Shown: in pieces, positions 3,372 through 54,188 of the stretch
Position numbering within the stretch: position 1 is the first letter of the stretch
Layout: each line of letters begins with the position of its first letter
Sequence record: NC_024142.2
Length of the DNA: 64,000 nucleotides
Strand: one strand, 5' to 3'
Origin: Escherichia phage Bp4
Position numbers and translations under genes: made by a program
The notes under the pieces: model-generated
Database searches by the model: none
Told to the model about the DNA's origin: nothing
Seen by the model: the letters and a program-made list of their open reading frames with translations, nothing else

Positions 3372-3996
3372 ACAGAAACTTGCTGCGAAAGGTGGTGCAG
3401 TGGGAGGGGTTGTCGCTGCTATCCTGGGGGCAGTGTTTTATATGGAAGGGGGATATGTAAATAATCCTCGTGACCCAGGTGGTGAAACCAATCATGGTAT
3501 TACCCAAGCTGTAGCTAAATCTCACAAAGAAGTTCTGGCTACTGAATACGGCTGGGATGGTTCTATGAAGGGTTTATCTAAAGAGATGGCTGCTGAGATA
3601 TACATTGATGACTACGTACTTAAGCCTAACTTCGTAGCCTTCGCTGATATATCTCCTGCTGTAACACATAAGCTGGTAGATGCTGGTGTTAATACGGGTG
3701 TAACCCGTCCTGCTAAGTGGTTACAGTTGTCTCTTAATGAAATGTCACGTAATGGCAAAGACTACCCTAAAATACAGGTTGATGGTAAAGTTGGTACAAG
3801 TACTGTTAATGCATATAAAGCATTACAGAAAAAACGAGGCAAAGTTGCAGCATGTCAGGTAATGATTAAGTTACTCGATGCTAAACAACTGAACCACTAC
3901 ACCTCATTAAACATGCCAGACTTTACGTATGGTTGGGTAGCTAACCGAATAGGCAATGTGCCACTGGAGGCATGTAATGAAGATGCTAATCTCTAA
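3361..3996 (+). CDS. endolysin, GH108-type N-acetylmuramidase with peptidoglycan-binding domain
   Basis: Motif EGGYVNNPRDPGGETNHGIT is typical of glycoside hydrolase family 108. N-terminal hydrophobic Gly/Ala/Val stretch suggests a signal-anchor-release (SAR) type. Position matches N4 gp61. Confidence 0.8.
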   Translation: MKAKQKLAAKGGAVGGVVAAILGAVFYMEGGYVNNPRDPGGETNHGITQAVAKSHKEVLATEYGWDGSMKGLSKEMAAEIYIDDYVLKPNFVAFADISPAVTHKLVDAGVNTGVTRPAKWLQLSLNEMSRNGKDYPKIQVDGKVGTSTVNAYKALQKKRGKVAACQVMIKLLDAKQLNHYTSLNMPDFTYGWVANRIGNVPLEACNEDANL

Positions 3997-4483
3997 AGGT
4001 TGGCCTTATCTTCTGGTGGTGGTCCTAGGGGCCACCATTTACTTTTGGGGTAATTCCAATGGGCAGTCTACTGTTCAAAAGAAGTGGGATGATCAAAAGG
4101 TTGAAGATCAAAAGGCAATGCAAAAACTACAGGACAAATACAATGCTCTCCAAAGAAACCATAGTTATGAAGTCGGGTTACTCACTTCCCGGTTGCAGAC
4201 GGCTGAGAGTAATTACGCAAGCGAGCTTGCTCGCGTTAGCAGTGATTATGACAGCCGGATGCAACAGTCTGAAAGACGAGCATCGGTATATAAACGTCAA
4301 GCCGAAGCCGGAACCTTTGAGTGCAGAAGTCTTGCAAGCCATGCAGCCAGACTCGACAACAGTCTTGAAGAAGGCAGACGTTTGGTTGAAGAACTCCGGG
4401 CAACTGTTAGACTCCGTGACAGCCAACTAATTGAGTTGGGTAAACAGATTCAGGCTGATCGTAAACTTTTTGAACAGGAATAA
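3956..4483 (+). CDS. i-spanin (Rz-like)
   Basis: N-terminal TM helix ([16 protein letters not shown]) followed by a charged coiled-coil domain; lies immediately after endolysin. Likely start is ATG at 3977. Confidence 0.6.
4167..4430 (+). CDS. o-spanin (Rz1-like) lipoprotein embedded in +1 frame of Rz
   Basis: ORF fully inside the Rz gene in another frame; signal-like [12 protein letters not shown] with Cys, then proline-rich KPKPEP. Start chosen at internal ATG of ORF track 4059..4430. Confidence 0.45.
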   Translation: MKSGYSLPGCRRLRVITQASLLALAVIMTAGCNSLKDEHRYINVKPKPEPLSAEVLQAMQPDSTTVLKKADVWLKNSGQLLDSVTAN

Positions 4484-11196: not shown

Positions 11197-12333
11197 ATGG
11201 GCTTATTCAGTGGGAAGACTAAAGTATACGTAGCATCCTCTGTCTATAACATGGCAGGGGATATACACAAACGTCCTAACTATATGAAGACTGTAGTCAT
11301 CGGTAACATTGTTTCCAATACAGGATTCACTATGGCAGACACTATCTCTGATAGTTATCTGAATGGACCTGGTATTCGTATGCGATTGTTCTCCAGCTGG
11401 AGTAAGAACCACTATGATTCAGAAGTTGGTATGGCTGGTTCTTCGTTGGGTGTATTGGCTAAGATTGACCCTACTGTTATAGAGGGTCAAATTACACCAC
11501 CTGCTGGAGAGTCTGTCTATGTTCAGGCAGCAGAAATTGGCTTTGCTGACTTTGAGCAATGGTGTGACCAATATCTTTATGAAAATGCTCCTAGTCGAAT
11601 CATGGAACGATTCGACATAGACATCAATGAAGATACTAATGAAATTACTATGACCTCCCTGGATGGTGGTTCTACTATTAAATTCACACCTACTAACTTT
11701 GAACCAGGTGCTTTGTATCTCTATGCTGATTACTCATTCTATAAGTCCCCGTCTATCAATCCACCGGTAGAGGGACCGACTACTGTCTATGATGATGAGG
11801 ATGACTTACCTTCTACTTTGTTATGGACTACTGTTTCAAGTGATACAACAGCTAATACAACTAATCTCACTAAGACTATACAGACTCATTCTGTTTATTC
11901 TGATGGTAGACCAGATGAAGACAGTACTGTCACCGAACCAAGTGTAGATAACTGGAACTCTTACATTAAGGTTTACCGTAGAGGATTCACTGAAAAACCT
12001 GATGACGTAACTGTAGTTGTATCTGACAGGGTAATGACTCATAAAAAGTTTGGTGAGATTCAATCCAGTACTTCTGTAACTACCAATGTAGTTGATATAG
12101 GTGGTGGTGTTACTCGTACCGATACAATCACTACAACCACAGAGACACTGGTTCGTAAGTATTCCTCCCAGACTACTCGTACAGATACAGAGATGACTGC
12201 TGTTGGTACACCTAAGCTGCTTATCTATAAGCAGAACTCTGGTAACGTTGCACTAGACTCACTGTTCGATACCGAAGCTACTGATAACCGATTCTACCAT
12301 TCATTCCAATCAGGAATGATAAGCAATGGGTAG
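11197..12333 (+). CDS. virion protein, N-terminal part (probably continuous with 12525..13850 via a frame change)
   Basis: 378-aa ORF. The frame of the next ORF is open and protein-like from 12288, overlapping this ORF's 3' end. Confidence 0.5.
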   Translation: MGLFSGKTKVYVASSVYNMAGDIHKRPNYMKTVVIGNIVSNTGFTMADTISDSYLNGPGIRMRLFSSWSKNHYDSEVGMAGSSLGVLAKIDPTVIEGQITPPAGESVYVQAAEIGFADFEQWCDQYLYENAPSRIMERFDIDINEDTNEITMTSLDGGSTIKFTPTNFEPGALYLYADYSFYKSPSINPPVEGPTTVYDDEDDLPSTLLWTTVSSDTTANTTNLTKTIQTHSVYSDGRPDEDSTVTEPSVDNWNSYIKVYRRGFTEKPDDVTVVVSDRVMTHKKFGEIQSSTSVTTNVVDIGGGVTRTDTITTTTETLVRKYSSQTTRTDTEMTAVGTPKLLIYKQNSGNVALDSLFDTEATDNRFYHSFQSGMISNG

Positions 12334-14319: not shown

Positions 14320-15186
14320 ATGGCTCAGATAACGTGGAGAAATGTTGATGCACCTAACTTCTCTGGAGTTGGTGACAGCATTCGCACATTTGGTAGCATG
14401 ATTGGTAACGCCACCTCCGGCTTAAGTGATGCACTGGGTAATTTCCAGAACGCTGCCAAGCAGGAGGCTGGCAATGCCGTCATGATGAATGCTATGCAGT
14501 ACCAAGACCCGAATGAGTACCGTAATGCTTTGGCATCTGGTGCACTGTTTCAGGGGGTTGATCCTTCACTGGTAAATCAGCGTACCCTCCAAAACCTGGA
14601 TGAACGAGCAGGTACATTACTGACACAACAAGGACAGCAGGGAACCAATGACTACATTGCTTATCGCTTTGGTCGTTTACAGGATACTAACACTGCATTA
14701 GATAATGCTTCCCCGGCTATTCGTTTACTGTCTGAGGCTTATCAGTCCGGTGACCAGAACCGTATTAATGCTGCATTAAGTCAGACCCGTGATGCACTGT
14801 CTGCACTCCCTGCTGACCAACAACTGGAGATGATGGGTCGTCTACAAGGTCAGGGTGGTCAGGCTATTAATCAGGCACAGAATCGTTTTGATTTAGGTGT
14901 TGCTCAACGTAATGATGCTGACAGTCAGGCAGCTATGGGTGTAATGTCACAGATTACCCGTGGTGCTGAGAACCTAATGATGCCCGTCTGTTGGCAGAAG
15001 CATACAGTAAGAACTTGTCCCCAGTTGCACAGGCACGTTTACAGAGTTTACTGGCTAGTACTTACCGGTGTATACGGCAATGGCGTAGGTGCTGCGTCTG
15101 CTCCTGGTACTGCTGGTACTCGTCAGGGTTCCCCTTACGATGTTACTTACCAGTTTGCCGGTACATCTACCCTATTACTCAAATGA
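14320..15186 (+). CDS. hypothetical virion protein
   Basis: 288-aa ORF; its stop overlaps the next start in an ATGA arrangement. Confidence 0.45.
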   Translation: MAQITWRNVDAPNFSGVGDSIRTFGSMIGNATSGLSDALGNFQNAAKQEAGNAVMMNAMQYQDPNEYRNALASGALFQGVDPSLVNQRTLQNLDERAGTLLTQQGQQGTNDYIAYRFGRLQDTNTALDNASPAIRLLSEAYQSGDQNRINAALSQTRDALSALPADQQLEMMGRLQGQGGQAINQAQNRFDLGVAQRNDADSQAAMGVMSQITRGAENLMMPVCWQKHTVRTCPQLHRHVYRVYWLVLTGVYGNGVGAASAPGTAGTRQGSPYDVTYQFAGTSTLLLK

Positions 15187-15446
15187 GTATTGGTGATGTA
15201 ATTAAACACCAGGATGGTATGAAGTCGAATCAAGGTGCTTCACCTGTTGGTGCATTCCAGATTAACCAAGCTACTCTGAAAGACTTCGCTCCCAAAGTTC
15301 TTGGTTCAGATTGGCAAAGCCAGCCTCTTTCTCCTGAGAACCAGGATAAGATTGGTAAGGCTATCTTCGAGTCTCGTAAGAACGGTAACCTTAAAGATAC
15401 TTGGGCTGCTCTGCCTAACTCTACCCAGGTGCTTATAAGGATATGA
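15183..15446 (+). CDS. hypothetical protein
   Basis: ATG at 15183 overlapping the upstream stop (ATGA); 87 aa reading MSIGDVIKHQ...; ORF track gives 14991..15446. Confidence 0.4.
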   Translation: MSIGDVIKHQDGMKSNQGASPVGAFQINQATLKDFAPKVLGSDWQSQPLSPENQDKIGKAIFESRKNGNLKDTWAALPNSTQVLIRI

Positions 15447-35320: not shown

Positions 35321-36240
35321 CGCTTAACCTGCCCCTCCACGACCTTGATAGCACCCTTGCCACCTTTTTCAGCCATGAAGATACGAGCAGATGCCATATC
35401 GTCAAATTTTTTGGTACTTCTGGCTCCAGGTACATCTACCTTAGAAGCATCAGAGAAGTATTTGAACTGTGGCTCTGTTCGCCACAACTCCTCATCAGTA
35501 CATTCAGGAATTTCCTCTTCTGGTGCATTCCAGTACTTCTCAATGAGGTGAATCTTCTCTTCTACCCAACGTTCAGTCTTCTCAACAGATAGCAACGGAA
35601 TATCCTTATGCATAATACGATTAGCAGGATAGTTTGGATTGCTATTAGCCATATGCTTCATGAAGTCAGTGAAGATGTAGTTAATACGGATTACATCCTC
35701 GGTAATGATGTCGTTGTGAATCCAACGGTACAAGCTGCCTTGCATCTTGTGTTCATCATCACGGGAACCAGCAACCCAGGAATAGGTTGAGGTAGACTTA
35801 AAGTCCTGCAACAGACCTTCTGTTACGATGTCGAACTTACCACCGATAGTCCAACCCTTAACTACCCTGGTTCCACGCTGTTCAATGTAGATTGGGATAA
35901 GGTCAGGGTTAGCATCAAAGTCTGCTTTGGTTGGGTTAATAACTACTGCATCAATTACTCGTTGAGGATAACCCAACTTCTTCAATGCAGTCTTATGACC
36001 CAGCTTCCAGGCTTTCTCGATAGAATCATGTAAACCAGTACCCATTGATGTGGAGACGAAATCCATAACATCAATTGACTGATCACTTAAATCTACACGA
36101 TGCTTCATGACGATTTGCTTAATGGGCTTAAGCAATGTGGTAACAGACAGATACTTAGGGTTATCTACATAGTCATAATCATCCGTTACAAGCCATACAG
36201 CTAGTGCAAGACTAACGTCGTGTTTGTTGGTAAGTTTCAT
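35260..36240 (-). CDS. PD-(D/E)xK-type nuclease with C-terminal Cys cluster (Cas4/RecB-like exonuclease, putative)
   Basis: Motif GGKFDIVTEGLLQDFKSTS (D...D/E-x-K) and C-terminal RCLYCPVASICKQ. Confidence 0.45.
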   Translation of the reverse strand: MKLTNKHDVSLALAVWLVTDDYDYVDNPKYLSVTTLLKPIKQIVMKHRVDLSDQSIDVMDFVSTSMGTGLHDSIEKAWKLGHKTALKKLGYPQRVIDAVVINPTKADFDANPDLIPIYIEQRGTRVVKGWTIGGKFDIVTEGLLQDFKSTSTYSWVAGSRDDEHKMQGSLYRWIHNDIITEDVIRINYIFTDFMKHMANSNPNYPANRIMHKDIPLLSVEKTERWVEEKIHLIEKYWNAPEEEIPECTDEELWRTEPQFKYFSDASKVDVPGARSTKKFDDMASARIFMAEKGGKGAIKVVEGQVKRCLYCPVASICKQRERYFPS

Positions 36241-36734
36241 AACAGTCCCAATTGCTTATTAGTTTTAGCAAACTCACCATAATGAGTTATAGCAGCTTCA
36301 TCATAGAGAACAGCAGCTTCTCTTGGGTCATCTGTAAAACCTAATGTAATTGGTTTACTGTTAACCCAAATAGTTGCTCTGTATTTACCTAAATTCTTTG
36401 AAAAGGATACCCCCTTAAATCCAGATGTGTTTGTTTTAGATAAAACAGCACTCTGGTTATTCTGCTTGTGGGTCGCTTCTCTGAGGTTATCTATCCAGTT
36501 GTGATGGCGAATATTGTCCTTATGGTCAATCCTATCCGTAGGCCATACACCGTGCACATAGAACCATGCAAGGATATGCCCATAGTACAACACACTATCT
36601 ACACGGAGTTGAACGTAACCACTCTTCATTAGGTAACCAGATACCTTTCCGGTATTCCTACGAGTAAAAATCCCGGAAATAGGGTCATAACTAACAAGCT
36701 GTAAAAGCCTGTCATGGGCAATCCTCTGTTTCAT
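36237..36734 (-). CDS. HNH homing endonuclease with AP2 DNA-binding domain
   Basis: HNH motif DHKDNIRHHNWIDNLREATHKQN plus AP2-like GVSFSKNLGKYRATIWVNSKPITLGFTDDPREAAVLYDEAA. Confidence 0.8.
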   Translation of the reverse strand: MKQRIAHDRLLQLVSYDPISGIFTRRNTGKVSGYLMKSGYVQLRVDSVLYYGHILAWFYVHGVWPTDRIDHKDNIRHHNWIDNLREATHKQNNQSAVLSKTNTSGFKGVSFSKNLGKYRATIWVNSKPITLGFTDDPREAAVLYDEAAITHYGEFAKTNKQLGLL

Positions 36735-50972: not shown

Positions 50973-51479
50973 TTATTTACTGCTTCTTGCAGCTACTGGT
51001 TTGTTTTCCTGGTTCTGATACTTGCCATTGTAATTAGCAGGTTCCTGAACCAGATGAAATAATACTTGAGCTATCCCAGAACCAGCCGGGATATGCAGTT
51101 TCTTACGACCGTGATAGACAAGTTCGAGGGTAAGATACCCTTTCCATCCTGGTTCTATTACGGTATTGAACACAGATAATGCACGTCTTGCCCAGGTAGA
51201 CTTATCGTGAACGATGGCTACACAGGAAGGAGACATGTTGAACTTCTCAATTGCTGAAGCCAATGTGAACTTACCGAGATGGCGTGATACTTGATTTCCA
51301 TCAACGACTTTCACCATTGGAATCAACCCAAATAAGCGATAGAAGGTAATATCTTGTTTGATACGAATATCATAACCAGCTTCACCCAATCCATAGCTTA
51401 CACCATGCTCGGATACCTTACGGTCTGGGACATCCAGCAACTGAGATGAACGATAAAGAGAATTACCATTAACAACCAT
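50973..51479 (-). CDS. dCTP deaminase / dUTPase-family protein
   Basis: Motifs VSYGLGEAGYDIRI and PAGSGIAQV resemble the dCTP deaminase/dUTPase fold; 168 aa. Confidence 0.5.
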   Translation of the reverse strand: MVVNGNSLYRSSQLLDVPDRKVSEHGVSYGLGEAGYDIRIKQDITFYRLFGLIPMVKVVDGNQVSRHLGKFTLASAIEKFNMSPSCVAIVHDKSTWARRALSVFNTVIEPGWKGYLTLELVYHGRKKLHIPAGSGIAQVLFHLVQEPANYNGKYQNQENKPVAARSSK

Positions 51480-51997
51480 TATTTCATTCCTTTAGGGATA
51501 TGAACTACCTCCCCAAAAGGTACGGTAGCATTAGGATTATTCAGAACACACCAGATGATAGGAATATCAAATGGTAATTCTTTCATTGGGCGAACATACA
51601 TATCGGAGAATATGATTGCAGCGGTTGGCTTATTCTTAATAATCCAATCACGTACTGGTTCAAGGCTTGTACCACCACGACCAGTAATCTTAATCTCTTC
51701 AAAAGTATCTTCTTCAGTGATGTCTATTTCTTCCTGGATAATATCGTCGAAGGTAATTAGTGACATCTTCTTAGGATTGAACTGACTTTTAACGTAGGCG
51801 ACTTCTGAGTTAAAACGCAGAGAGTCAGCACTACTAATAGAACCAGATACATCCTCAAAGTAGGCTAAGTGACGTAGACGTCCTTCATCATCTTCTAAGG
51901 AAGGTAGATAGATGTCAGTGTAACGACGGTTGGGTCTGGCCCACGTATAATGTGTGTCATCAATGTCGGTAAAAAGTTCATCAGAACTTCCTGCCAT
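51479..51997 (-). CDS. von Willebrand factor A (vWA) domain protein
   Basis: MIDAS-like DVSGSIS and GRGGTSL motifs. Confidence 0.55.
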   Translation of the reverse strand: MAGSSDELFTDIDDTHYTWARPNRRYTDIYLPSLEDDEGRLRHLAYFEDVSGSISSADSLRFNSEVAYVKSQFNPKKMSLITFDDIIQEEIDITEEDTFEEIKITGRGGTSLEPVRDWIIKNKPTAAIIFSDMYVRPMKELPFDIPIIWCVLNNPNATVPFGEVVHIPKGMK

Positions 51998-52051
51998 GGA
52001 ACCACTGGTTTAAGGAATTGGGTAATAACCTCTTCCATACGACCAGCACCT

Positions 52052-52651
52052 TTACCAGGCATCTGTCCACCAGCCATTTTCTGGCTCTGCATTGCACGTA
52101 CTACGTTGTTGACAACAGCACCCTGGGACTGCCCGAAGTGGGGATTTCATGTCGCCAGCAAGACCTGCTCCAGCACCCCCTGACGGCTTCTGCCTTTTCT
52201 GAGGGTTCTTCATCAGGTCATCGTAGATGTCTTCTTCGACCCATCCTTTATATTGAGGGTCTTTGCAAATGCCTTCATCAATGCCAGTGAACTTGTAACC
52301 ATCTTCTTCTAACTGAAGGTTAATGAAGTGGTCACAAGCCTGGTTCCAGACTTCTGGGTCACGGCTTCCACGTCGGATGTCGTGTAGATATGCCACATGC
52401 CATAATTCATGCATAAGCACTGTTTCTCTTACATCTGGACACATCCAGATAAAGAAATCTGGGTTGAAATGGAGTTCTATCCCATCAGTACATGCAGTGG
52501 GACAATCCTCACGTTTCCATGAGAATTTAAGACTACACAGTAATGAACCAAAGAAGGCTGCGCTGCGACCTAAAAAAGCCTGCGCTTGGATTCTATCGTA
52601 CTCCCTCATTAGCTGCTCATCTGTGAGACTATGCGTAGGTATACTGTTCAT
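52052..52651 (-). CDS. putative zinc metallopeptidase-like protein (HExxH)
   Basis: HELWHVAYLH motif; partners with the vWA gene; C-terminal 30 aa look non-protein-like. Confidence 0.5.
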   Translation of the reverse strand: MNSIPTHSLTDEQLMREYDRIQAQAFLGRSAAFFGSLLCSLKFSWKREDCPTACTDGIELHFNPDFFIWMCPDVRETVLMHELWHVAYLHDIRRGSRDPEVWNQACDHFINLQLEEDGYKFTGIDEGICKDPQYKGWVEEDIYDDLMKNPQKRQKPSGGAGAGLAGDMKSPLRAVPGCCCQQRSTCNAEPENGWWTDAW

Positions 52652-52983
52652 TAGGGTGCTCCATGATTGGGGTGATAGCCATACAGTTTTTCAGCCGCTT
52701 TTCTGGCGTCTATGGCATCTTGCTTGTCTGCAAAAGTGCCCAAACTTACCAGACGTGTTCCATCAGATATAGCTGCATACCAGATGGAATCACGCTTGTG
52801 CCAGTACACACCAGTAACACCACTGGAATTAGTTACCCGTTTCTTTTGGTTTCTGGTGTTAGTTCTGCTGTCTACTAATCTAAAGTTACTTAGAAGGTTA
52901 TTAACCCTATTGTGGTCTAGGTGATCAATCTGCATACCTTTCGGGATAGGTCCATTGTGCATTTCCCATATGACACGGTGCAC
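52651..52983 (-). CDS. HNH homing endonuclease with AP2-like domain
   Basis: HNH box QIDHLDHNRVNN and AP2-like GVYWHKRDSIWYAAISDGTRLVSLGTFADKQDAIDARKAAEKLYG. Confidence 0.75.
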   Translation of the reverse strand: MHRVIWEMHNGPIPKGMQIDHLDHNRVNNLLSNFRLVDSRTNTRNQKKRVTNSSGVTGVYWHKRDSIWYAAISDGTRLVSLGTFADKQDAIDARKAAEKLYGYHPNHGAP

Positions 52984-53136
52984 TTTGTAACTTTTGCCCT
53001 TATAGTTGAAGCATAAATAACCATCGCTATTTAGATTACCTACCTTTTTCCAGCAATGCCTCTGGAGGCTACTGTAACTTTCCAGAATAGCTCCCCATTT
53101 ATGTAAACGAGTATGTCATTCCAGTTCATGTTGTGA

Positions 53137-53637
53137 TTACCCGTGAATGTAGCGAGAGATATTAGCAGCAGCCTTACGCCATTCAGGGGTAGCCTGAAGA
53201 TCTGGTAATGCATTGCCTACTGTACGGAAGTACAGAATCTTATGGGTGAACGTTTTAAAGCGTTCAATATACTGAAGAACATCAGCAAAGTTTTCTTCAG
53301 TAGTTTTGTTAGCCAGATGGTTAACGGTAGCCCAACACAGGTTGTTATCTTCTGGTAGTGCACAACCCATAGGGTCTTTGACTACTTTTTCAATCGTAAT
53401 GATACGATTGTATACCTGAGTGAACTGAACAAACTCTGTAGCCTTACCAGCAGTAACGTGACCTGAATAGTAGATAGAATCTTCATCAGGAAGAGCACCT
53501 TCTGGTAAGTTCTTGAGGTCTTTATTAACAAAGTCCCAAGTACGAGGGCAACAGAACGTTTTGTTCTTATGTGCTGGGTCGAAGTCATGCAGATAACCAG
53601 GGTTAGCATGTAAGAATGCAACCAGACGTTCATCCAT
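53137..53637 (-). CDS. AAA+ ATPase, C-terminal part (after frame change)
   Basis: 166-aa ORF whose frame is open from about 53645; continues the ATPase in the -1 frame. Confidence 0.5.
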   Translation of the reverse strand: MDERLVAFLHANPGYLHDFDPAHKNKTFCCPRTWDFVNKDLKNLPEGALPDEDSIYYSGHVTAGKATEFVQFTQVYNRIITIEKVVKDPMGCALPEDNNLCWATVNHLANKTTEENFADVLQYIERFKTFTHKILYFRTVGNALPDLQATPEWRKAAANISRYIHG

Positions 53638-54188
53638 TGCTGAGGAATCATTACATCTTCAACAAAGATGTCGAAGTTAAGTTCCATTTCAAAGTGAACC
53701 ACACGAGACTGCATTGCAGTACCCAGTGGGTTAACAATGGCACGGTCAGTAGCTTTGTTACCAGCACAGACAATCATCACATTAGGATGAAGTTTTTTCT
53801 GACCAGTCATACGGTCTAGAATCAGTTTATATGCAGCAGCTACTACTTCTTTCTTAGCTGAGTTGAACTCATCAAGGAATAAGAGCCAGCCATTATACCC
53901 TTCTGGTAATTCATCTCCCTCAATTGGGAATAAGTCAGCGAATGGAATAAACTCTGCACGGTCACCATTACGGAATGGTAAGCCAGAAAGGTCTTCCGGG
54001 GCAGAAGTTGACAGACGATGGTCTATCAACTTCATACCAAATTCTTCTGCAATAGAACGAATGATTGCAGATTTACCCATGCCAGGTGATGAAGTCAGGA
54101 ACGGTACGTTACCTGCTTTCAAAGCACGGATAATAAAGTTACGAGCTTGACGTGAATTACATACGGTCAAGGAGTCAATGCTTGCCAT
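53382..54188 (-). CDS. AAA+ ATPase, N-terminal part (real coding probably ends near 53640)
   Basis: Walker A SSPGMGKSAI and Walker B LLFLDEFN; after VHFEMELNFDIFVEDV the ORF becomes low-complexity (likely out of frame). Confidence 0.6.
   Translation of the reverse strand: MASIDSLTVCNSRQARNFIIRALKAGNVPFLTSSPGMGKSAIIRSIAEEFGMKLIDHRLSTSAPEDLSGLPFRNGDRAEFIPFADLFPIEGDELPEGYNGWLLFLDEFNSAKKEVVAAAYKLILDRMTGQKKLHPNVMIVCAGNKATDRAIVNPLGTAMQSRVVHFEMELNFDIFVEDVMIPQQWMNVWLHSYMLTLVICMTSTQHIRTKRSVALVLGTLLIKTSRTYQKVLFLMKILSTIQVTLLLVRLQSLFSSLRYTIVSLRLKK

Follow-up and report, generated by a model that had tools for sequence, protein, structure and literature searches.

The subject of this report is a 64,000-nucleotide (nt) stretch of Escherichia phage Bp4 DNA from sequence record NC_024142.2 (hereafter, the window), and specifically a small gene on its minus strand that lies between the homologues of gp24 (an AAA ATPase gene) and gp25 (a DUF2201 metallopeptidase/VWA-like gene). 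We found that this gene is very probably a free-standing HNH(HNN)-AP2 homing endonuclease gene resident in Bp4/PD38-type Gamaleyavirus. The locus is 99.8% identical to that of Escherichia phage PD38 (Gamaleyavirus, species Bp4), a G7C-like, N4-like coliphage. An earlier, sequence-only reading of the window had flagged an open reading frame (ORF) of 110 codons at this position as an HNH-AP2 homing endonuclease lodged between these two neighbors. That assignment and that placement are sound, but the ORF comprises only the 3' two-thirds of an ordinary HNH-AP2 nuclease gene, and it looks short only through the loss of one base from an A-run.

Occupancy, transfer and recoding at the gp24-gp25 junction

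Occupancy of the gp24-gp25 junction was scored with a 1.3-kb query over 57 related phage records. The junction is filled in ten of them, namely PD38, Uz-1, Moonfish, G7C (two records), Mimir124 and UE-S5a/S5b/M3/M6, and it is empty (i.e., about 480 nt shorter) in the remaining 47. The gene is therefore not universally present at this locus, and its absence from so many relatives indicates that it is dispensable. In empty genomes, the gp24 stop codon is followed by a short spacer and then by the ATG of gp25 (ATGAACCA..); the spacer reads TCACAAC in several of these phages (e.g., pSb-1 and St11Ph5), and other short spacers occur elsewhere. In filled genomes, the TCACAAC spacer precedes the ATG of the endonuclease gene (ATGAACTGG..), and gp25 restarts at TAATG. 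These boundaries are identical in every filled sequence inspected. The gene is thus inserted exactly at the gp25 start codon, directly after gp24, and it occurs sporadically at a fixed site. Many additional filled sites are present in metagenome and Logan contigs, with gp24 (350 amino acids, aa) and gp25 (391 aa) intact. The gene is free-standing, given that both of its neighbors are complete in relatives. A second allele, G7C gp24.1, occupies the same site with the same boundaries. Relatives of the endonuclease are found in approximately 2,665 phage records, nearly all at less than 60% identity.

A comparison of contigs to PD38, made over 479 nt of the gene, points to movement between phage backbones. 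Four independent contigs (L029, L030, L038 and L039) show no substitutions in the gene. Their flanks are divergent: L038 carries 52 mismatches in 1053 nt of gp24 and 20 in 437 nt of gp25 (nt 64-500), L039 carries 49/1053 and 20/437, and L030 carries 56/1053 and 17/437 in the same intervals; in L029, the numbers are 1 in the 57 nt of gp24 covered and 19 in the 311 nt of gp25 covered. Within the gene, L029 and L030 differ from PD38 in the length of the A-run alone. At a divergence of about 5%, 479 matching bases would be expected by chance with a probability of roughly 1e-11. The identical tracts begin 10-58 nt upstream of the endonuclease ATG (L030, L038 and L039) and end at gp25 nt 22-188 (all four contigs), and such variable endpoints are expected of separate conversion events. 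Other copies of the gene diverge more than their own flanks do (8-36% vs. 5-10%). By these comparisons, the genealogy of the gene is decoupled from that of its flanks, which is evidence of recent lateral transfers. Within the allele lineage, the ratio of nonsynonymous to synonymous substitution rates (dN/dS) is 0.05-0.09 at a dS of 0.4-0.8; strong purifying selection maintains the protein, although most relatives can do without the gene.

One seemingly striking case was dropped as evidence of homing. In the record of phage Uz-1 (OP312987), the gene is 100% identical to that of the window and the flanks are 95% identical. However, the alignment of Uz-1 (8584..72583) to the window (1-64000) is effectively gap-free despite 3,807 substitutions, and Uz-1 has the homopolymer deletions of the window, described below, at all five sites compared in a 2.9-kb region. 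Further, its zero-mismatch blocks coincide with accessory genes, both HNH genes included. Because of this shared coordinate frame, the shared deletions and the location of the zero-mismatch blocks, the Uz-1 record has the appearance of a reference-guided consensus and not of an independent genome, and it was set aside.

An indication of where the enzyme may act comes from the 5' end of gp25. We compared 19 filled sequences (9 distinct haplotypes) to 10 empty ones (also 9 distinct haplotypes) and found 12 fixed differences, at gp25 nt 7, 9, 17, 21, 29, 39, 42, 46, 48, 58, 60 and 63. There are none in gp25 nt 64-300 in the same 19 and 10 sequences, and a smaller set (5 vs. 6) showed none over the final 300 nt of gp24. 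The divergence between filled and empty alleles is 0.345 in gp25 nt 1-63 compared to 0.089 in nt 64-388. The empty alleles are unusually uniform in the tract, with a diversity of 0.047 compared to 0.085 downstream of it. From codon 11 of gp25 onward, the proteins of filled and empty genomes are identical (DEQLMREYDRIQA), and the differences there are synonymous; examples are CTC to TTA, and CGT to AGG or AGA. The search for a target site in relatives without the insert thus yielded a candidate, and there is an even chance that gp25 nt 7-63 is where the target lies. By its linkage to the insert, the tract is also compatible with target-site immunity, in that it resembles what such immunity in carriers would look like.

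The gene and its predicted product

The protein is predicted to be a nuclease of the HNH(HNN)-AP2 family. The flagged ORF matches Pfam HNH_3 with a score of 60.6 bits (cut-off 24.8; E = 1e-16) and PHROG 99, “HNH endonuclease” (E = 4.5e-56), and it has 116 homologues at E <= 1e-10. Across 57 aligned homologues, H70 and N82 do not vary, and conservation is 90% or higher at D69, N78, N91 and N94. The nearest solved structure by sequence is that of I-HmuI (1u3e; E = 7e-7), which was also ranked first by Foldseek with respect to the N-terminal nuclease domain. An AlphaFold model derived from the 57-homologue alignment has a mean predicted local distance difference test (pLDDT) score of 92, and its C-terminal domain comprises three strands (108-111, 116-122 and 127-133) and a helix (136-150). 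For this domain, Foldseek returned AP2 domains of plants and Plasmodium, namely AtERF1 (1gcc; probability 0.99), TEM1 (7et4/7et5; root-mean-square deviation of 1.5 Å for 7et5), PfAP2 (3igm) and WRI1 (7wq5). Several homologues also carry a precomputed match to PF00847. The model therefore supports an AP2 fold for the C-terminal domain. The D-H...N...N arrangement without Cys dyads is that of the “HNN-AP2” type of Xanthomonas phages (PMC2248197), and the combination of HNH and AP2 is a recognized endonuclease family in phages (PMC10448857). Nothing except its small size and GTG start would favor regarding the ORF as a chance open frame or a piece of a neighboring gene; the HNH_3 and PHROG matches, the number of homologues and the confident fold model refute that notion, and it can practically be dismissed.

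The boundaries that the sequence-only reading gave to the ORF cover only part of the gene, and its start was said to abut the upstream stop. In fact, the GTG at 52983 is internal and abuts nothing; the true ATG lies at 53129, 7 nt past the stop of the ATPase gene (Table 1). When the minus strand is translated in three frames from 53141 downward, the flagged frame proves to be open as early as 53049 (..KKVGNLNSDGYLCFNYKGKSYKVHRVIWEMHNGP..), and the frame beginning at the true ATG soon ends at a TAG. The two frames meet at an A5 tract, which shifts the endonuclease frame after codon 28 and leaves the window with no uninterrupted frame from ATG to stop. When they are joined at this run, a 159-aa protein results, and the HNH_3 score rises from 60.6 to 63.5 bits. 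Intact alleles have 480 nt (159 codons). That of PD38 (AXY81310.1) differs from the 479-nt copy in the window by one extra A and nothing else, and intact 159-aa copies occur at the same site on many other contigs. The description of this gene as the shorter of two HNH-AP2 genes thus holds for the ORF, which is indeed short, but the gene is a frameshifted copy and not a shorter variant.

A GGAG sequence lies 8 nt upstream of the gp25 ATG, within the endonuclease coding sequence. No terminator-like site was found for the gene; two sigma-70-like matches, fewer than expected by chance, both fall outside of it, and no promoter of its own was found. An intron-borne endonuclease was ruled out for the window, in which no Rfam family was detected between 51000 and 55000.

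Table 1. Features of the endonuclease locus and of a second HNH-AP2 gene in the window
Feature	Position	Strand	Remarks
Full gene of the predicted homing endonuclease	52651..53129	-	ATG at 53129, TAA at 52651-52653; 479 nt here
Flagged ORF	52651..52983	-	110 aa, internal GTG start; C-terminal 110 codons of the larger gene; frame open back to 53049
N-terminal fragment	53040..53129	-	29 codons (MNWNDILVYINGELFWKVTVASRGIAGKR), then TAG (53040-53042), in the other frame; from three-frame translation
A5 tract (T5 on plus strand)	53045..53049	-	Frameshift site; A6 in intact alleles, A7 in contig L030
HNH_3 (HNN-type) nuclease domain, predicted	52852..52989	-	Residues 48-93; Pfam, homologue alignment, I-HmuI match
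Catalytic-motif codons	D69 52924-52926; H70 52921-52923; N82 52885-52887; N91 52858-52860	-	Checked in the window sequence
AP2-like DNA-binding domain, predicted	52678..52824	-	Residues 103-151; three strands and a helix; Pfam, model, Foldseek
gp24 stop codon and spacer before endonuclease ATG	53130..53139	-	TAA at 53137-53139, 7-nt spacer TCACAAC; from sequence
TAATG overlap	52649..52653	-	Endonuclease stop and gp25 ATG have one base in common
Minimum cassette without substitutions	52630..53139	-	Common to PD38/window, L029, L030, L038 and L039; backbones 4-6% diverged
gp25 nt 7-63	52589..52645	-	Proposed target/immunity tract; 12 fixed filled-vs-empty differences
gp24 homologue (AAA ATPase)	53137..54188	-	Split by one-base deletion (C3 to C2) at 53633-53635; 350 aa intact in relatives
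gp25 homologue (DUF2201_N metallopeptidase-like + DUF2201 VWA-like)	51479..52651	-	Three ORFs here; 391 aa intact in relatives
Other HNH-AP2 gene	36237..36734	-	165 aa; PHROG 99; 28% identity to the flagged gene; between 326-aa and 158-aa ORFs

Proposed homing, its alternatives and the frameshift

These observations can be accommodated in a simple scheme. The endonuclease would be expressed from the gp24-gp25 transcript. Its gene makes use of the spacer found before gp25 where the site is empty, and it hands translation over to gp25 via the TAATG overlap. In a mixed infection, the enzyme would nick or cut the un-recoded 5' end of gp25 in an endonuclease-free Gamaleyavirus, and recombinational repair off the endonuclease-bearing genome would copy in the gene along with the adjacent recoded tract; that is, intronless homing with short co-conversion. 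The recoding would shield carriers from self-cleavage. The architecture, site polymorphism, decoupled genealogies, transfers, purifying selection and recoded tract are the observations behind this scheme; the enzymatic activity and the position of the cut are what we infer.

Several points weigh against homing as the explanation. The location of the target derives solely from linkage, and the recoded tract could simply be donor DNA carried along when the gene was first inserted. Ordinary recombination, with no action of the nuclease, could in principle account for the spread of identical cassettes to different backbones. We found no published cleavage or homing assay for this enzyme or for G7C gp24.1. 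On sequence alone, the Pfam AP2 score (23.3 bits) falls under the cut-off of 33.3. Finally, the copy in the window, as written, cannot yield a full-length protein. Another possibility is that the gene encodes a domesticated nuclease or DNA-binding protein that serves the phage in competitor exclusion, recombination or regulation, and that it has been spread by ordinary recombination. The strong purifying selection on the protein and its position within a replication/nucleotide-metabolism operon, beside conserved genes, would suit such a role, and bioinformatics alone cannot tell homing nucleases from domesticated ones such as the terminase-associated HNH protein of HK97 (PMC10448857). However, most related records lack the gene at this junction, and it is not adjacent to a terminase gene. 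Further, a sharp, mostly synonymous recoding that is limited to about 60 nt beside the insert is predicted by a site-specific nuclease and not by a general function. We thus consider domestication unlikely and retain the homing endonuclease as the best account of this gene.

The frameshift in the window copy must be viewed in light of the record that contains it. Compared to PD38, the whole window has only 3 substitutions but 34 indels, and each of these indels is the loss of a single base from a homopolymer in the window. Examples are found at 12298, 14974-15426, 35024, 38152, 38530, 40079, 45304 and 46734, with others at 51975, 52134, 52139, 53049 and 53635. Five deletions are located in the endonuclease locus: one in gp24, one in the endonuclease gene and three in gp25, the last of which (near 51975, 52134 and 52139) cause that gene to be split. 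Sixteen of the 34 disrupt long ORFs that are intact in PD38; the genes affected include those for DNA polymerase (three times), rIIA (twice), primase and structural proteins. Because a phage with those lesions would not grow, the deletions as a class must be errors, and the record appears to carry systematic homopolymer under-calls. The split AAA ATPase gene and the split metallopeptidase-like gene are therefore most likely record errors that are unconnected to the endonuclease. The sequence-only reading had tied the ORF to the “disrupted” AAA ATPase gene nearby. This tie has no basis, and the endonuclease was ruled out as a cause of the disruption, which is a separate one-base deletion in a C-run some 500 nt away, one of the 34.

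It is tempting to assign the endonuclease frameshift to the same class of errors, and we modestly favor this explanation, according to which the phage has an intact 159-codon gene. It fits the uniform character of the indels against so few substitutions, the damage to genes that a viable phage must have, and the fact that an intact A6 is the usual state in other assemblies. Nevertheless, independent assemblies have A5, A6 or A7 in a gene that is otherwise the same. Contig L029, from an ENA metagenome, has 18 substitutions relative to the window in its flanks and none in the gene, yet it has the same A5; in the 70.9-kb Logan contig L030, A7 is the only indel in 3.4 kb relative to PD38. Since L029 carries A5 on other flanks and L030 carries A7, the length of the A-tract does vary in nature. 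The majority of copies in other assemblies are intact and have A6; ten 159-aa sequence variants fall in one 90% cluster (11 members in total), and several of these variants lie on contigs some 70 kb long.

These facts make a genuine frameshift a serious contender, falling only a little short of an even chance. The window copy would then be recently inactivated, a slip-strand null on a path that leads from invasion through fixation and decay to loss. The A5 allele of L029 and the A7 alleles (in L030 and one similar place) are what would be expected on this path, as is the degenerate Moonfish copy with its 31-nt deletion. There are also precedents in the degeneration series of HNH-AP2 genes in Xanthomonas phages (PMC2248197) and in the frameshifted HNH/AP2 gene pair of ICP1 (PMC10448857). 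On the other hand, the same record has 33 further homopolymer deletions, not all of which can be real, and the absence of any change relative to the intact PD38 copy beyond the missing base means that any decay would not have gone beyond a single step. Scans of IMG/VR and JGI metagenomes for the exact pattern of the A-run region returned no matches; exact look-ups of the broken gp24 and gp25 fragments of the window also gave no match and are uninformative.

A third, improbable explanation is that the A-tract (codons 27-29) truly acts as a switch through changes in its length. Frameshifted copies may still spread in this case, whether through trans-homing by intact copies, through low-level -1/+1 slippage that restores the frame, or through rapid on/off toggling; such toggling would make this a phase-variable or self-attenuating homing endonuclease. 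Sister alleles have GGK, GGR, GDR or GNT at this point, and the absence of the A-run from them counts against a switch. We note that the A-run of the intact allele reads GGA AAA AAG and therefore includes an in-frame A_AAA_AAG slippery heptamer of the dnaX type, while the window (53043-53051, minus strand) reads GGA AAA AGG TAG, i.e., a rare Arg codon and then a stop. No evidence of function for the heptamer was found, and the run is not kept in sister alleles. A conserved programmed frameshift was thus thought unlikely, because those alleles lack the run.

Other nuclease genes and comparison to known systems

As the sequence-only reading had stated, the window contains another HNH-AP2 gene. 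A recent duplication was ruled out: the two genes are only 28% identical, and tblastn does not find one with the other. Because of this low identity, they appear to be separate acquisitions of one widespread family. The earlier interpretation took the pair as a sign of active mobile-gene traffic. The mostly empty junction and the decoupled histories of gene and flanks support a mobile element, and universal presence in related genomes, named in that reading as its refutation, was not observed; a duplication, which the mention of two copies suggests, is not supported.

Other nuclease genes are found nearby in relatives. An insert of about 0.9 kb that carries an HNH endonuclease gene interrupts gp24 in pSb-1, U1G, PW8 and some metagenome contigs. 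The insert is located at approximately 3436-4475 in sequence L006, at 3436-4376 in L007 and at 1275-2069 in L018, and it is also present in L031; the site maps to about 53811-53830 in the window. Where Pfam calls exist (L018 and L031), its gene has NUMOD4 and HNH_3. The Rfam group I intron scores of the insert are below the gathering score of 50 (33.2 bits with E = 3e-5 in L018, and 26.8 bits in L006). The insert, which the window lacks, probably represents an intron-borne endonuclease. In addition, some contigs with a filled junction have further nuclease genes close by: an Endonuclease_7 ORF directly follows gp25 in L031 (3155-3480), where others have dCTP deaminase, and L035 (1-436) has an upstream ORF with NUMOD4 and HNH_3 and a weak AP2 match. 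Selfish nucleases seem to concentrate in the region from gp24 to gp26.

The gp25 protein itself is labeled “HNH endonuclease” in many records of relatives (e.g., the RefSeq records NC_070873 (St11Ph5), NC_070871, NC_070870 and NC_070850, and also nithesis and Mimir124). It has no HNH domain here, where Pfam finds DUF2201_N and DUF2201, and the label is probably a propagated annotation error. It could distort counts of endonuclease genes.

The endonuclease gene had already been annotated, both in Bp4 and, as gp24.1, at the same site in G7C. It is a routine selfish element of a known kind that behaves as expected. What is new is incremental and concerns its precise boundaries, the recoding of the gp25 tract, the individual transfers and the variable length of the A-tract. 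The main value of this work is a correction, in that the short ORF and the “disrupted ATPase” both stem from homopolymer indels and have no biological tie to each other. The locus is also of modest use as a clean natural case of intronless homing among N4-like phages: its insertion point is known, its alleles form two lineages, the tract ends of several recent transfers have been mapped, and there is a candidate target of 57 nt. The record of Uz-1, and probably that of Bp4 as well, is unsuited to uncritical use in indel-sensitive analyses.

The closest known system is G7C gp24.1 (YP_004782150.1), which is annotated as a “putative HNH homing endonuclease” similar to EndZ of phage TLS and has copies in Mimir124 and UE-S5a/S5b/M3/M6. 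It shares with the window gene the insertion point between gp24 and gp25, the MNW start, the TAATG hand-over, the length (158-159 aa) and the domain order, and its genomes have the same recoded gp25 5' haplotype as filled genomes of the window type. The two differ in that their identity is only about 58% at the aa level and about 64% at the nt level, with flanks that are 92-93% identical; gp24.1 is a separate lineage of alleles that occupies this site. Among G7C-like phages, endonuclease loci have been described as places where modules are swapped (bioRxiv 10.1101/542787). The existing annotations of the window-type allele are less informative: the “HNH endonuclease” of Bp4 (AHN83416.1/YP_009032030.1) is a 103-aa tail of the flagged ORF (100% identity), truncated by the frameshift, and the intact 159-aa version in PD38 (AXY81310.1) is labeled only as a “hypothetical protein”.

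More distantly, the gene resembles other free-standing HNH(HNN)-AP2 endonucleases of phages (group I of Xp10/OP1/Xop411, the “IPA-HNH” of ICP1, and PHROG 99). These, too, have an N-terminal HNH domain with the D-H...N...N motif and no Cys dyads, followed by a C-terminal AP2 domain; they are likewise free-standing and sporadic, and degenerate copies of them have been seen (PMC2248197, PMC10448857). The window gene differs from the Xanthomonas and ICP1 genes in host lineage and target gene, and its protein matches the canonical HNH_3 profile, whereas IPA-HNH does not. The catalytic D-H and Asn residues of I-HmuI (SPO1, 1u3e) align with those of the window protein. However, I-HmuI is intron-encoded, and its C-terminal half is unmatched by the AP2 domain, the sequence match being confined to residues 33-100 of the query. 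I-HmuI nicks one strand and binds DNA via other modules. The free-standing endonucleases of T4 (the HNH Mob and GIY-YIG Seg enzymes) are intergenic, lie between conserved genes, and cleave the adjacent gene of an endonuclease-free relative, with co-conversion of flanking markers. In their domains, the Mob proteins combine HNH_3 with a zinc finger (PMC10448857), in place of which the window protein has AP2.

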